A DNA stretch of 36,941 nt from a virus (taxonomy: Duplodnaviria; Heunggongvirae; Uroviricota; Caudoviricetes), in the IMG/VR virus record IMGVR_UViG_2563366846_000004. One strand, 5' to 3'. A program made the translations under genes and the position numbers. Under the pieces are notes generated by a model that did not search any database, was not told the DNA's origin, and saw nothing but the letters and a program-made list of their open reading frames with translations. Shown piece by piece: positions 10,422-15,644 of the stretch (the first letter of the stretch is position 1; every line of letters begins with the position of its first letter).

Positions 10422-10634
10422 ACGGATAGTCCTGGTATTGTTCCATCACATCTTGAGGATGCTCTTCGAACTCTTCAAATTCTTCTTCCATATATCACCT
10501 TAAATAGTGGATTGCGGTAGTAAAGATTGTGCCTGTCTTTTAACCACATCAGGCTCGGTGGTTCTCGTGTACCCCTACAACGAGAAATCGGATAAACTCT
10601 ATTCACCCCTACAGAGAGCAAAAGAGAAACGCCG

Positions 10635-11216
10635 ATGAACAACTCATGGTGGCAGGAACTAATGCATTTTTTCCTGCAAGGAATGACACTTAAACAGTTG
10701 ATTCATATGCTAATCATCCTGATCATATTGATTATTGTTATGCCGGTAAGCGTAAAAGAATGGATAAACCTGCATAATCCAGAAATCCTTCCTCATTACT
10801 GGATGTATTACATCCTGTTGTTTTGCGTTAGCTATGTGCTTAACGGCGTTGTTAATTCCGCTTATCACGCTGTGACTGAAAGAATTGAGGTATTCGCTGC
10901 TCAGAAGCGCAAATCTAAAGAAGAAAAATATGTGCAAGATTTGTTTGATTCGTTAACTCTTGGAGAAAGAGCGTATTTGGCATTCGCTGTAGCCGCTAAT
11001 AACCAGCTACAAACGGAAAAGGGCGCTCATGAATCAATTTCATTGCTCAAAAAAGGACTCCTCGTTCGAAGGCCTCCTGCTGTTGGATATCCTGATACCG
11101 ACCGTTTCGTTATCCCTGAAAGCTATAGACATGAGTGCTACATTAGGTTTGCCGGGAAGGCAGACAGCCTTATGGATGAACTTATCGCTCAGGATAAGCA
11201 TGGCAAAAACAAGTAA
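10635..11216 (+). CDS. sieB: Superinfection exclusion protein B, membrane protein, 193 aa
   Basis: Rightward gene embedded between ral and N as lambda sieB; hydrophobic N-terminal segments; AT-rich. Confidence 0.7.
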   Translation: MNNSWWQELMHFFLQGMTLKQLIHMLIILIILIIVMPVSVKEWINLHNPEILPHYWMYYILLFCVSYVLNGVVNSAYHAVTERIEVFAAQKRKSKEEKYVQDLFDSLTLGERAYLAFAVAANNQLQTEKGAHESISLLKKGLLVRRPPAVGYPDTDRFVIPESYRHECYIRFAGKADSLMDELIAQDKHGKNK

Positions 11217-11232
11217 TTAGCAAATGAATTTA

Positions 11233-11505
11233 TCATCTCGCCGTCAGTTGTTTTGATTTCCGGTAGCCTGCCGCGTAAAGAGCTACGTTCGGAAGACAAG
11301 TTGAACCTTCATATTTTCTGGTCAACGTTGTCAGAGTTATCACTTCTGCTCTCATTGCTGGTTTGAGCTTGCATTGCAAGACCACTCGTGAAGGGGTTGG
11401 CCTGTGTAGCTTGTCGGAGCTGATCGCCTCCTGACTTTGCAGATTTGCGCGACGAGCTCTACGGCGAGAAGCTGCGGTGCCTTTAAATTCTGTTTTTCTG
11501 GACAT
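11233..11505 (-). CDS. N: N-type transcription antitermination protein, about 90 aa
   Basis: Arginine-rich motif GTAASRRRARRANLQ near the N-terminus; start at internal Met preceded by GGGAGGA; sits between pL/nutL and sieB. Confidence 0.7.
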   Translation of the reverse strand: MSRKTEFKGTAASRRRARRANLQSQEAISSDKLHRPTPSRVVLQCKLKPAMRAEVITLTTLTRKYEGSTCLPNVALYAAGYRKSKQLTAR

Positions 11506-11604
11506 GGATTCCTCCCGAATAAACTTTGGCGATGCAATCTCGAAGCTCCTCCTGAGACGGTTGCTTCGGCATTGCATCCCACAGCTTATGTGGTTGGGTG
11601 ATCT

Positions 11605-11648
11605 GGCTTTTCAGCCACGTAGTCGAGAGTCGACGTTGTTTAAAGAGC
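11605..11648 (-). promoter_or_regulatory. nutL: Putative nutL: boxA-like GCTCTTTAA plus boxB-like hairpin GGCUGAAAAGCC on the leftward transcript
   Basis: On the minus strand, boxA-like at 11640-11648, a 23-nt spacer, then a stem-loop at 11605-11616; a parallel arrangement lies just after cro (nutR). Confidence 0.45.
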
Positions 11649-11907
11649 CTGCCAGTCTGTTCCATTTGGCTTCCAGCGTCCTGCTGACGGTTAAATAGTA
11701 CGATATGTACTTTACAAGATCAATACAATTTGTTGTAAGTTGGCGTGGTTTTTTATAACGCTTTGTATTTAATAGTGTTGTTTTTTAGCGTGGATGTATT
11801 GCCTCGGCGATGTAAGGAGAGATCAGAATTGCGTGGTTTAGTGGGTTGCATCTATTTATTTTTCAATAAATATAATTGGTTATGTGTTTTTAGGTGGGCG
11901 AACGTGA

Positions 11908-11936
11908 GGCAAAGAAAACCCGGCGCTGAGGCCGGG
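11908..11936 (-). terminator. Rho-independent terminator ending the cI-proximal operon (analogous to lambda tImm)
   Basis: Perfect stem CCCGGC/GCCGGG (11919-11924 and 11931-11936), 6-nt loop, followed on the minus strand by GTTTTCTTT. Confidence 0.55.
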
Positions 11937-11941
11937 TTGTA

Positions 11942-12694
11942 TTATGCTGCAAGTCTCTTAACCCAAGTCTCTCTTTTGGAGAATGGTAGAACTTGGCTTG
12001 ATTCATGGAAGAGTAAGGAGAGTTGTTGCATTTGATCACCAATTGCTTCGCTGTCTATAACAACAAATCTGTTGTTATACTCCTCACTTGAAGCTTTAAG
12101 ATCAATTAGTTTCCCAAGCAATGAGTAAGCACTATTCCAGCTTCCTCCGTGTTTCACGCTTGATGTAAAAACGTATTTAGGTATGTCGGTTTTTATTGTT
12201 ACAGGGACGGTAATTTGATGTCCACTCAAGCCATATACGTTTTCACGAAGAGAAAGTGCGTCTCTAAGCTCTGTGTGATATAGATAATCAATAACCATAC
12301 TTTCAAACTTTTCAGCTTGAACTGGCTGATACCAGTCTAACGACAAAGTTGATGCGAGTATACCAGCTCTAATTATGTTCGATGTAATCGCACCGACATC
12401 CTTTTCTGTTGCCCAAGCAATGATTTCTCCTCGAGCATTGAGTTCTGCGCCTTCTTTAAGCAGTAATTGTCGTATCTCATCAAGTCGTTTTTTGGTAAGC
12501 GAGATCCCTCTTGCCTCCATATTCATTAAGGCATCGCATCTGTCACTAACTAAATACCTACCATTGACTTCACGGATAAAGGCACCGACATGCTCTCCAT
12601 CATCACAGTAAGTGAATGGACTGATAATTCTCAAGGTCTTGCCTATTGGATGGCATTCGAAACCTAGTTGTGAGATCACTGTTGAGCACATCAT
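11942..12694 (-). CDS. Uncharacterized protein, 250 aa; second gene of the cI-linked two-gene operon in the rexAB position
   Basis: ATG overlaps the stop of the upstream gene (ATGA); AT-rich; no transmembrane segment or motif that I recognise; followed by a terminator. Confidence 0.6.
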   Translation of the reverse strand: MMCSTVISQLGFECHPIGKTLRIISPFTYCDDGEHVGAFIREVNGRYLVSDRCDALMNMEARGISLTKKRLDEIRQLLLKEGAELNARGEIIAWATEKDVGAITSNIIRAGILASTLSLDWYQPVQAEKFESMVIDYLYHTELRDALSLRENVYGLSGHQITVPVTIKTDIPKYVFTSSVKHGGSWNSAYSLLGKLIDLKASSEEYNNRFVVIDSEAIGDQMQQLSLLFHESSQVLPFSKRETWVKRLAA

Positions 12695-13248
12695 ATTCCA
12701 AACCCCATTTGCCCCGACTCATCTTCAAGCGGTAAAGGTATTCTCCCAGAGTAAGTTATGTTCAGATGTTTACAGAAGTAATTCCAATACCCTACCAGGT
12801 CATCTGGGTTTATGTCATCTTCGATTGGAAACGCTATTCTATCACTATAGTATCCAGCTTCTTCATAGTATACATGGTAGTGAGCACCGTAAATGATATC
12901 TTGGTACTTCGGATGATCGACCTTGTAACTATTCGTGTGTTTGTCAAAGTGATAGGTATCTACCGCGAAAACCCTCTTGTTATGATAGAAAGCAATAATA
13001 TTTATTTTAGGGTAAGAAATCGGGTCATCAGGTTCTGAATCCTGATCTGGTTTCCATTTCAGTTCAAACTTTAGCCCTTGTATAGGTATACAATCCTCAT
13101 CCAAGGGGATGATATGGGCTTGTAGCCACATATCAGAGCGACTTGGTTTCTGTTTCCATTTAACGCCAGAAAAGTTAACTATTTTTTTACAATAAAGTAC
13201 TTTATCAACTTCTACTTGGCTTGGCTGATAATCATCTATTTTTGCCAA
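12691..13248 (-). CDS. Uncharacterized acidic protein, about 185 aa; first gene of the cI-linked operon
   Basis: Starts 39 nt downstream of the cI stop on the same strand with no intervening hairpin; start codon appears to be TTG at 13248 with a weak upstream AGGGCGG, next in-frame ATG is 39 codons downstream; no recognisable motif. Confidence 0.55.
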   Translation of the reverse strand: MAKIDDYQPSQVEVDKVLYCKKIVNFSGVKWKQKPSRSDMWLQAHIIPLDEDCIPIQGLKFELKWKPDQDSEPDDPISYPKINIIAFYHNKRVFAVDTYHFDKHTNSYKVDHPKYQDIIYGAHYHVYYEEAGYYSDRIAFPIEDDINPDDLVGYWNYFCKHLNITYSGRIPLPLEDESGQMGFGI

Positions 13249-13287
13249 TGTTTACCGCCCTGTAAATTGTAGATAAAAGTGGTTTCA

Positions 13288-13947
13288 TCACCCAAACGTC
13301 TCTTCAGGCCATTGGCTGGCGATAACTTTCCCCACAACGGAACAACTCTCATTGCATGGGATCATTGGGTATTGTGGGTTTAGTGGCTGTAGAAACACCT
13401 GACCGCTATCCCTGATCAGTTTCTTGAAGGTAAATTCATCACCACCAAGTCTGGCTATGCAGAAATCGCCGGGCTCAACAGCTTGCTCAGGGTCAACCAG
13501 AATTAACATCCCGTCAGGAAAGCTGGGTTTGGAACCTGTTGGTGCGGTCATTGAGTTACCTTCAACCTCAAGCCAGAATGCAGAGTCACTGGCTTTTTTG
13601 GTTGTGCTTACCAATCTCTCCGCATCGCCTTTGGTAAAGGTTCTGAGTTCTGGAGAGAACATCCCAGCCTGAACATGAGAAAAAACAGGGTACTCATATT
13701 GTTTTTTAACTGGGGCCGATGAGTATTCGCCAACAGGTGAAAATGTCCCGTCGTGGTTGAATGATATGTTATCAATACCAAGGTATTTAAACACCACACC
13801 AATATCACTAAGAGATGGATGACGAGATCCGCGCAACCAGTGTCCAATCCCACCCTGCGTCATACCTAGCTCTTCGGCTAACTTCTCTTGAGTTATGCCG
13901 AGCTCTTTCATTCTGGATCTAGCCAGTTCATACCATTTCATTTTCAT
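13288..13947 (-). CDS. cI: cI repressor, S24 LexA-like, with a lambda-type C-terminal domain and a divergent N-terminal HTH domain
   Basis: C-terminal roughly 100 residues match lambda cI by recollection; N-terminal HTH ([21 protein letters not shown]) differs from lambda; start at internal Met of the track ORF. Confidence 0.85.
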
Positions 13948-14058
13948 GTCCTTATTATTACGCTCTGTACTGGAACCATCCATGCACAATGTGTATTTTT
14001 ACTTGTATTCGCAAAGTACATATTGTATTTTTTTATTCGTGTTTACTATGGAGGGCAT
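13948..14058. promoter_or_regulatory. Divergent cI/cro control region (oR, pRM, pR) with dyad-symmetric candidate operators
   Basis: Dyads CACAATGTG (about 13985-13993), TACTTGTATTCGCAAAGTA (14000-14018) and GTACATATTGTA (14016-14027); a related GTACGATATGTAC lies upstream of N at 11698-11710. Confidence 0.45.
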
Positions 14059-14274
14059 ATGAGCAACCTACGAAAATATCGAGAGTCACTGAATATCTCT
14101 CAAACAACACTTGCTAAGGCAGTTGGATGCACACAGGGAGCTATCGGACATTGGGAATCTGGTCGTCGCTTCCCAGACCTTAAAACATGCCGTGCTCTTG
14201 TTGCGTGCCTAAACAAGTTAGGCGCAAAAGTCAGTCTTGATGACGTGTTCCCGCCGGAACACAAAGCCGCTTAA
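14059..14274 (+). CDS. cro: Cro-like HTH repressor, 71 aa
   Basis: ATG preceded by GGAGGG; HTH motif QTTLAKAVGCTQGAIGHWESG; divergent from cI. Confidence 0.7.
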   Translation: MSNLRKYRESLNISQTTLAKAVGCTQGAIGHWESGRRFPDLKTCRALVACLNKLGAKVSLDDVFPPEHKAA

Positions 14275-14284
14275 TAAGCGGATC

Positions 14285-14329
14285 CGCTCTTTGTAACAAC
14301 GGACATTCGTCCTACGTCGCTGAAAAGCG
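14285..14329 (+). promoter_or_regulatory. nutR: Putative nutR: boxA-like CGCTCTTTG plus boxB-like hairpin UCGCUGAAAAGCGA
   Basis: boxA-like at 14285-14293 immediately after the cro stop; stem-loop at 14316-14329 sharing the core GCUGAAAAGC with the nutL hairpin. Confidence 0.45.
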
Positions 14330-14415
14330 AGTTCCAAGATATCTGACCAACTAAGGCCATATGCGTTTCCACGCATACCTTTCAACTAACTATTCACTAT
14401 TGGAAATCTTAAGAA

Positions 14416-14712
14416 ATGGAAAGAACAAGTTACAGCAAACTATCACAGCGTGACGTTGATCGCGCAGAAACAGATTTACTTATCAATCTGTCAGCTATTA
14501 CCCAGCGCGGTCTGGCAAAGATGATTGGCTGTCATGAATCGAAGATAAGCAGAACGGACTGGAGATTTATTGCTTCGGTCTTGTGTGCTTTCGGAATGGC
14601 ATCAGACATCAGTCCGATTAGCAGGGCTTTTAAGTATGCGCTTGATGGACTCACCAATAAAAAACGCCCGGCGGCAACCGAGCGTTCTGAACAAATCCAG
14701 ATGGAATTCTGA
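14416..14712 (+). CDS. cII: Transcriptional activator cII, 98 aa
   Basis: C-terminal LTNKKRPAATERSEQIQMEF matches lambda cII by recollection; N-terminal part divergent. Confidence 0.8.
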   Translation: MERTSYSKLSQRDVDRAETDLLINLSAITQRGLAKMIGCHESKISRTDWRFIASVLCAFGMASDISPISRAFKYALDGLTNKKRPAATERSEQIQMEF

Positions 14713-14744
14713 GGTCATTACTGGATCAATCCACAGGAGTCATT

Positions 14745-15644
14745 ATGACAAATACAGCAAAAATACTCAACTTCTGCAGAGGTAACTTTGCCAAACAGGA
14801 GCGTAATGTGGCAGATCTCGATGATGGTTACGCCAGACTATCAAATATGCTGCTTGAGGCTTATTCAGGCGCAGATCTGACCAAGCGACAGTTTAAAGTG
14901 CTGCTTGCCATTCTGCGTAAAACCTATGGATGGAATAAACCAATGGACAGAATCACCGATTCTCAACTTAGCGAGATTACAAAGTTACCCGTCAAACGGT
15001 GCAATGAAGCCAAGTTAGAACTCGTCAGAATGAATATTATCAAGCAGCAAGGCGGCATGTTTGGACCAAATAAAAACATCTCAGAATGGTGTATCCCTCA
15101 AAACGAGGGAAAATCCCCTAAAACGAGGGATAAAACATCCCTCAAATTGGGGGATTGCTATCCCTCAAAACAGGGGGACACAAAAGACACTATTACAAAA
15201 GAAAAAAGAAAAGATTATTCGTCAGAGAATTCTGGCGAATCCTCTGACCAGCCAGAAAACGACCTTTCTGTGGTGAAACCGGATGCTGCAATTCAGAGCG
15301 GCAGCAAGTGGGGGACAGCAGAAGACCTGACCGCCGCAGAGTGGATGTTTGACATGGTGAAGACCATCGCGCCATCAGCCAGAAAACCGAATTTTGCAGG
15401 GTGGGCTAACGATATCCGCCTGATGCGTGAACGTGACGGACGTAACCACCGCGACATGTGCGTGCTGTTCCGCTGGGCATGCCAGGACAACTTCTGGTCC
15501 GGTAACGTGCTAAGTCCGGCCAAACTCCGCGACAAGTGGACCCAACTCGAAATCAACCGTAACAAGCAACAGGCAGGCGTGACAGCTAGCAAACCAAAAC
15601 TCGACCTGACAAACACAGACTGGATTTACGGGGTGGATTTATGA
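14745..15644 (+). CDS. O: Replication initiator O, 299 aa
   Basis: 299 aa; contains the ori iterons internally; near-identical to lambda O by recollection. Confidence 0.9.
   Translation: MTNTAKILNFCRGNFAKQERNVADLDDGYARLSNMLLEAYSGADLTKRQFKVLLAILRKTYGWNKPMDRITDSQLSEITKLPVKRCNEAKLELVRMNIIKQQGGMFGPNKNISEWCIPQNEGKSPKTRDKTSLKLGDCYPSKQGDTKDTITKEKRKDYSSENSGESSDQPENDLSVVKPDAAIQSGSKWGTAEDLTAAEWMFDMVKTIAPSARKPNFAGWANDIRLMRERDGRNHRDMCVLFRWACQDNFWSGNVLSPAKLRDKWTQLEINRNKQQAGVTASKPKLDLTNTDWIYGVDL
15092..15230 (+). repeat. ori: Replication origin: four roughly 19-bp iterons followed by an AT-rich stretch, inside O
   Basis: Iterons TATCCCTCAAAACGAGGGA, AAATCCCCTAAAACGAGGGA, AACATCCCTCAAATTGGGGGA, CTATCCCTCAAAACAGGGGGA at about 15092-15178, then A-rich 15179-15230. 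Confidence 0.8.

Follow-up and report, generated by a model that had tools for sequence, protein, structure and literature searches.

Probable nut sites of the H-19B architectural class with a tetraloop boxB and a short arginine-rich motif in N in a lambdoid coliphage

The 36,941-nt Caudoviricetes record IMGVR_UViG_2563366846_000004 from IMG/VR (the whole stretch is referred to here as the window) contains a lambdoid phage immunity region. Two related RNA elements, one downstream of the leftward promoter pL and one downstream of cro, are very probably nutL and nutR of an N antitermination system of the H-19B architectural class. The sites are real, and both their kind and their H-19B-type architecture are ordinary; the long spacer between boxA and boxB is already known from that class and is no novelty. 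What appears to be an undescribed specificity variant is the pairing of a boxB that carries a GNRA tetraloop (GAAA; GCAA in POCJ13) with an N protein that has a short, lambda-like arginine-rich motif (ARM) without tryptophan.

The nutL site (11604-11649, minus strand) lies upstream of N and starts about 40 nt downstream of the pL -10 element. It consists of boxA GGCTCTTTAA (also written GGCUCUUUAA; 11640-11649), a 23-nt spacer ACAACGTCGACTCTCGACTACGT (11617-11639, or 11618-11639 if boxB is counted in its 5-bp form) and boxB GGCTGAAAAGCC (11605-11616; 5-bp form TGGCTGAAAAGCCA, 11604-11617). Folding divides the spacer into ACAAC, a small hairpin GUCGA-CUC-UCGAC (11622-11634) and UACG (11618-11621), and gives boxB a 5-bp stem UGGCU/AGCCA with a GAAA tetraloop. 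On the plus strand, nutR begins 11 nt past the cro stop codon, upstream of the tR1 region and cII, a position like that in lambda. Its boxA CGCTCTTTG (also written CGCUCUUUG; 14285-14293) is followed by the spacer TAACAACGGACATTCGTCCTACG (14294-14316), which folds into UAACAAC, a hairpin GGAC-AUUC-GUCC (14301-14312) and UACG (14313-14316), and by boxB TCGCTGAAAAGCGA (14317-14330), again a 5-bp stem (UCGCU/AGCGA) with a GAAA tetraloop.

The original prediction, made from the window's letters, had proposed paired nut-like sites within 11605-14329. All of the strings it quoted are present, nutL on the minus and nutR on the plus strand, although that range ends one base short of the nutR boxB, and its observation that the spacer is much longer than that of lambda (23 nt versus 8-9 nt) holds. 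It was silent on the hairpin within each spacer, on the loop being of four rather than five nucleotides, and on the short ARM without tryptophan. The exact 10-mer GCTGAAAAGC occurs in the window only at nutL and nutR, and the composite ACAACG-N10-14-TACGTNGCTGAAAAGC has two matches, one on the minus strand after pL and one on the plus strand after cro, against none in 100 shuffles. The boxA 7-mer alone is unspecific (12 matches, 5.5 expected). Together with the ACAA that follows it, the nutL boxA is close to the rrn-type boxA GCUCUUUAACAA, and every E. coli relative that has this N keeps it as [G/U/A]GCTCTTTAA. The nutR boxA is likewise kept in E. coli relatives, and is absent or degenerate in the Salmonella epsilon34 group.

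Both hairpins are conserved as RNA structure. Related loci were gathered from N, by scanning IMG/VR with the N proteins of the window, POCJ13 and epsilon34, from annotated phages, and from the RNA side through exact nutR strings; a scan of genome contigs with an N alignment returned four loci and little beyond one P22-type example in Escherichia albertii. We set 26 unique nut variants in an explicit structural register and counted pairs there; MAFFT misplaced indels. Across these variants both stems are 100% canonical, and RNAalifold applied to the register returns exactly the two hairpins. The outer pair of boxB occurs in four types (U-A, G-C, A-U and C-G; at nutL of relatives U-A, C-G or A-U) and the second pair in two (G-C and C-G). 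Positions 2-4 of the spacer stem show three to six pair types. The spacer stems comprise three unrelated ones (GGAC/GUCC, GUCGA/UCGAC and GAUUC/GAAUC), a compensatory GGGC/GCCC found at nutR of one relative (L128), and two wobble intermediates. The variants fall into a few clades, so each stem records only a handful of independent changes; in the window's own lineage the nutL spacer stem is constant and only its loop varies (CUC, ACUC, ACAC, GCAC or AUC). The spacer is a conserved ACAAYG...UACG-N frame around a small hairpin with compensatory variation. The likeness of the two spacers that the original prediction had pointed to is real, but it is that of this conserved frame around a covarying hairpin, and it is known from H-19B. 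No Rfam family matched within 10500-15000.

The N gene (11233-11505, minus strand) encodes 90 residues, all of which are covered by the Pfam family PF25694 N_peptide (1.5e-32, residues 1-90), and carries the motif SRRRARRANLQ, as had been proposed. The protein combines the short ARM S13-RRRARRANLQ-23 with an HRPTPSR motif and the C-terminal segment CLPNVALYAAGYRKSKQLTAR, and is 98.9% identical to the N of VT2-Sakai. In older records (VT2-Sakai, Nil2 and the Stx1 phage) N is given as a 114-residue open reading frame from an ATG at 11577 (11233-11577, minus strand). The sequence supports the 90-residue form instead: GGAGG precedes its ATG at 11505, and it aligns with the N proteins of H-19B and HK97. 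The upstream ATG lies within a long hairpin in the N leader (11511-11597, minus strand), between nutL and the N ribosome-binding site. This hairpin has a minimum free energy of -39.3 kcal/mol (z -4.63), a stability equalled in none of 200 shuffles, and is reminiscent of the RNase III site of the lambda N leader.

The loop of boxB follows the ARM of N. The window boxB is the H-19B boxB minus the C of its loop (GAAA versus GACAA), and in POCJ13, whose N is 84% identical, the loop is GCAA at nutL and GAAA at nutR, so that loop variation in the tetraloop class stays inside the GNRA consensus. We defined the short ARM by the pattern [SGA]RRR[AE][RHL]RAx[LF]Q and the long ARM by RRRERLKAKALANG. Sampling from N yielded 168 distinct regions. 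With a short-ARM N the loop had four nucleotides at 128/128 nutL and 120/120 nutR sites, across 29 different cro 3' contexts and 43 distinct N proteins, and with a long-ARM N it was GACAA at 33/33 nutL and 37/37 nutR sites. Sampling from the RNA agreed: all 77 contigs with a tetraloop nutR carried a short-ARM N and all 80 with a pentaloop nutR a long-ARM N, eight further loci in the pentaloop sample having truncated H-19B-type copies (six) or no N in range (two). No hybrid of ARM class and loop class was seen in about 320 loci.

This association extends beyond any one form of N. At least nine N backbones, 76-129 residues long and different in their middle and C-terminal modules, carry the short ARM. 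Among them are epsilon34 N, which has an H-19B-type central domain, and forms whose lambda-type C-termini end in GKSIPLI; it is thus the ARM, not the rest of N, that tracks the loop. The nutR contexts of Salmonella epsilon34-type and Oslo-type phages are near-identical, and their loops differ exactly as their ARMs differ. The match also holds at nutR, about 3 kb from N with unrelated immunity and cargo genes between, and is therefore hard to explain by linkage alone. The pattern is that expected of a co-evolving specificity module. The two Salmonella phages 103203_sal5 and vB_SosS_Oslo, which have a long-ARM N, show a nutR boxB of UCGCU-GACAA-GGCGA with a U.G closing pair. About 130 nt upstream of N, their nutL boxB reads GCUC-CGUCAAC-GAGC, with a 7-nt loop or a C.C mismatch around GUCAA, and is unlike every other nut site in the comparison.

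The closest characterized sites are those of H-19B, where boxA, spacer and boxB of nutR were defined with the antisense oligos RS662-664 (PMC3526286 supplement); nutR has two hairpins, and N with NusA protects the spacer and boxB but not boxA (PMC3526286). The nut sites of the window are homologous to these. With H-19B, 933W and HK97 they share an optional boxA, ACAAYG, a spacer hairpin, UACG, one base, and a 5-bp boxB with a U-A closing pair. The H-19B nutR reads CGCTATTTTCACAATGGACATTCGTCCTACGTCGCTGACAAAGCGA; its spacer hairpin (oligo RS663) and boxB stem (oligo RS664) are identical to those of the window, and from nutR to tR1 the two differ essentially by one loop base and the bases near boxA. 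The dyad symmetry of the H-19B spacer is said to have been described by Neely and Friedman in 2000 (Mol Microbiol 38:1074). The N proteins of the two share an MxRxTxFKG start (MSRKTEFKG in the window, MTRRTQFKG in H-19B), an RRR core, HRPT(L/P)SR and the C-terminal 21 residues. Their overall identity is 42%, the window N lacking about 30 central residues (90 versus 127 residues) and having an ARM seven residues shorter in pairwise alignment (RRRARRANLQSQE versus RRRERLKAKALANGVLAREE). The H-19B nutL has no boxA, whereas the window has a consensus boxA at both sites. The feature that defines H-19B, a GACAA pentaloop (five nucleotides, against the four of GAAA) with the ARM RSRRRERLKAKALANG, is replaced in the window by GAAA and the short ARM.

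Other systems share parts of this arrangement. As in lambda, boxA lies 5' of boxB, the sites follow pL and cro, the closing pair is U-A, the loop begins with G and ends with A, and the ARM aligns without gaps to RRRERRA-x-x-Q. Lambda differs in its GAAGA and GAAAA pentaloops, its unstructured 8-9 nt spacer, the Trp18 in its ARM and a C-terminal half unrelated to that of the window N. Its boxB pentaloop folds as a GNRA loop with one base extruded, following the rule GNRNA (PMC12027372). In the short-ARM class, all 128 nutL and 120 nutR sites have GAAA or GCAA in place of a GNRNA or GNNRA pentaloop with an extruded base, and every boxB compared outside this class (lambda, H-19B, HK97 and a P22-type prophage) has a pentaloop. 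P22 N (gp24) has the C-terminal module in common with the window N, and differs in its GACAA pentaloop, short spacer and ARM TRRHERRRKLAIERD. A prophage in Escherichia albertii NBRC 107761 (contig positions 2264-2560 and upstream) illustrates module shuffling within N: its N joins a P22-type ARM GNAKTRRHERRRKLAIERD to the C-terminal 21 residues shared with the window N, and its nutL has a short spacer (GCTCTTTAA-8 nt-GCGCTGACAAAGCGC). Salmonella phage epsilon34, whose N-like gp43 has the short ARM GRRRERRAALQ, carries GAAA tetraloops at both nutL and nutR; its N is of 120 residues with the H-19B-type central region, its nutL spacer stem is GAUUC/GAAUC, and it has no consensus boxA. Since epsilon34-group relatives in this class lack boxA, the element is not a constant part of such nut sites. 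The nearest earlier statement comes from the epsilon34 genome paper. It labelled a hairpin of 14 nt 'putative NutR - boxB', an annotation that also stands in GenBank, and from the divergence of the N-terminus foresaw 'a novel BoxB specificity', with no analysis.

Assignment of the two sites to the adjacent N, as the original prediction had proposed, is supported by their position, by homology with H-19B and by the covariation of loop type with ARM type. By analogy with the characterized systems, we infer N binding, host-factor use and antitermination for this phage. Transcripts from pL and pR would carry boxA, the ACAAYG...UACG frame with its spacer hairpin, and a boxB of 5-bp stem, U-A closing pair and GNRA loop. 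The arginine-rich helix of N (residues ~13-26, SRRRARRANLQSQE) would bind the boxB tetraloop in a lambda-like manner. This docking is suggested by several correspondences. The epsilon34 short ARM GRRRERRAALQNAV aligns without gaps to lambda N TRRRERRAEKQAQW, with the arginine patch and the glutamine at lambda Gln15 kept and no tryptophan at the position of lambda W18. An A/E polymorphism of the short ARM aligns with lambda Glu9, which is mutationally inert by deep mutational scanning (PMC12027372). Mutation of R3, R15 or R18 inactivates H-19B N, and these residues are conserved. Lambda N needs the U-A closing pair of boxB (PMC12027372), and this pair is present in the window boxB.

The remaining steps would be as follows. 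The HRPTPSR segment may engage NusA, which may also contact the spacer; the segment resembles NRPILSL, the NusA-binding motif of lambda N reportedly described by Bonin et al. in 2004. The conserved C-terminal segment of N may contact RNA polymerase, and NusB/S10 probably join, since a consensus boxA is present at both sites. The modified polymerase would then read through tR1, to cII, O, P and Q, and through leftward terminators. Specificity would lie in the four-nucleotide GNRA loop and the short ARM without tryptophan, as against GACAA and a longer ARM in the sister class of H-19B, 933W and HK97.

Several observations weigh against this reading. At equilibrium the nutL boxA (GGCUCUUU) preferentially pairs with the loop and 3' strand of boxB (AAAAGCC), leaving boxB a probability of about 0.24 in a calculation for complete, protein-free RNA at equilibrium; this alternative pairing encloses the spacer hairpin. 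At nutR, in contrast, boxB is favoured (probability 0.89). Pairs 3-4 of boxB and the closing U-A are invariant and hence give no evidence of covariation. A PDB sequence search with N gave no match at E up to 10, and the searchable literature holds no binding or antitermination data on this N/boxB pair. Legault in 1998 reportedly proposed that NusA recognises the N-boxB complex by way of the extruded base, the fourth in the loop, and the tetraloop is without such a base. Finally, many of the loci are close relatives, so that the counts overstate the number of independent observations, and N and nutL are about 100 nt apart, which makes their association partly one of linkage.

Two further ideas on this pairing and on the spacer hairpin were considered and rejected. 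The first boxA base is G at nutL and C at nutR, in each case the same as in the 5' strand of boxB, and a conserved alternative helix joining boxA to the 3' half of boxB was hence suspected. Relatives have G, U or A at this position of nutL with boxB unchanged, which rules out such covariation. The boxA-boxB pairing is thus probably incidental. A role of the spacer hairpin as insulator of boxB is not supported either: when either arm was broken or the hairpin removed, partition-function folding showed no fall in the probability of boxB, which at nutL moves from 0.24 to 0.69-0.95 on arm changes and to 0.30 on deletion, and at nutR stays at 0.89-0.99 throughout.

The two points on relatedness and linkage also bear on an alternative reading of the loop data, that the similarity of the sites and the association reflect hitch-hiking in one recently spread mosaic module and have no bearing on specificity, and that a short-ARM N would act equally well on GACAA. 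Many sampled loci are indeed near-identical prophages, and the lambda and P22 N/boxB pairs partly overlap in specificity. We nevertheless consider this unlikely, given that nutR is parted from N by unrelated genes in 29 distinct cro 3' contexts, that the short ARM meets tetraloops at both sites on each of its backbones, that epsilon34-type and Oslo-type nutR are near-identical save for the loop, and that hybrids are missing from the roughly 320 loci.

A different proposal is that the hairpins are mainly Rho-utilisation, terminator or RNA-processing signals, and that the likeness between the pL and pR sites reflects that role. Between nutR and cII lies the presumed Rho-dependent terminator region tR1 (14331-14415, plus strand; by homology), whose sequence is almost that of the H-19B nutR/tR1 segment which served as Rho-dependent terminator in PMC3526286. 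In H-19B the Rho loading (rut) site of tR1 and the nutR spacer overlap, and Rho footprints the spacer (PMC3526286); the nutR-tR1 block is conserved as a unit, and a large processing-type hairpin follows nutL. Such a role leaves unexplained that a different ARM in N goes with a different loop length at nutL and nutR alike, that the same boxB core stands at pL, where no tR1-like block follows, and that the hairpins have no U-tracts. A rut role of the spacer is moreover compatible with nut function and is no alternative to it. We regard this proposal as very improbable. Hardly credible, in our assessment, is recognition of the spacer hairpin by N with the GAAA hairpin as an accessory. The spacer hairpin is conserved with compensatory changes and is protected by N and NusA in H-19B (PMC3526286). 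Yet its stem and loop are wholly different between nutL and nutR of the same phage (GUCGA-CUC versus GGAC-AUUC), and the same nutR spacer serves both ARM classes and cannot carry ARM specificity. Neely and Friedman in 2000 are said to have found that boxB is required and that deletion of the dyad has little effect.

The immunity region has the gene order sieB, N, nutL, pL, cargo, cI, pR, cro, nutR, tR1, cII, O and P. Over 11200-14420 the coliphages ev017, ev207 and PhiR57_1 are 100% identical to the window, and Stx-converting phages such as Nil2, Stx2 II, 2851 and the PA series are about 96.5% identical with the cargo excluded. The genes flanking N and the nut sites are sieB (10635-11216, plus strand), cI (13288-13947, minus strand), cro (14059-14274, plus strand; 71 residues, HTH_3) and cII (14416-14712, plus strand), with O and P next. 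Read from the sequence, pL (11695-11723, minus strand) has a -35 TTGATC (11718-11723), a 17-nt spacer and a -10 TACTAT (11695-11700), and pR (14003-14031, plus strand) a -35 TTGTAT (14003-14008), a 17-nt spacer and a -10 TATTTT (14026-14031). An operator-like sequence AAAGTACATAT overlaps pL, with a second copy at pR. Both promoters were placed by eye and coincide with the promoter/operator annotation of the 96.5% identical Stx1 phage record AP005153; a sigma-70 consensus scan called neither of them.

Between pL and cI, in the position of rexAB, is a two-gene cargo (11942-13248, minus strand) encoding a DUF1828 protein of 250 residues and a DUF6978-like protein of 185 residues. The pair matches PDC-M24, a candidate defence system in PADLOC (B 4.7e-10, A 4.8e-4), and the cargo has its own terminator-like hairpin (11917-11938, minus strand). 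VT2-Sakai-type relatives are without the cargo, and their coverage of the region is only 57%. A palindrome CCGCTTAATAAGCGG (14267-14281) spans the cro stop codon directly 5' of the nutR boxA; it is limited to this cro/immunity type, and the sequence differs there in other immunity types.

The N and nutL segment is widespread: of 5,426 complete E. coli genomes, 759 (14%) contain at least 80% of it, among them Nissle 1917 and the type strain, and the N of the Sakai Stx2 phage belongs to the tetraloop/short-ARM class. In RefSeq complete E. coli genomes with 100% matches to N and nutL (for example Nissle 1917, NZ_CP022686.1 4788441-4788868) the genes are labelled only 'hypothetical protein', and the short N appears to be systematically un-named in E. 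coli annotation. The searchable literature, which leaves out subscription journals, holds no phage paper with these boxB strings and no paper on the nut sites of Stx2/VT2-Sakai-type N, and a prior description in subscription journals is possible. A practical use of the comparison lies in annotating N and its nut sites in the hundreds of genomes that now list N as hypothetical.

N-boxB is a textbook system of RNA recognition by an arginine-rich motif and is in wide use for tethering RNA. With a natural boxB that is widespread and has no extruded base, the role of that base in NusA-dependent assembly becomes directly testable, and the system bears on how few changes switch antitermination specificity between co-resident prophages. 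We tentatively suggest, as a possibility we would not yet favour, that short-ARM N and GNRA-tetraloop boxB form an orthogonal specificity class whose complex assembles without an extruded loop nucleotide. If so, NusA would be recruited through the HRPT motif of N and the ACAAYG/UACG-framed spacer, not through a loop base. A one-base indel in the loop and an indel in the ARM would then suffice to keep Stx and other lambdoid prophages that share a host from responding to one another's N, and the pair would constitute a minimal 14-nt natural tethering system orthogonal to lambda N-boxB.

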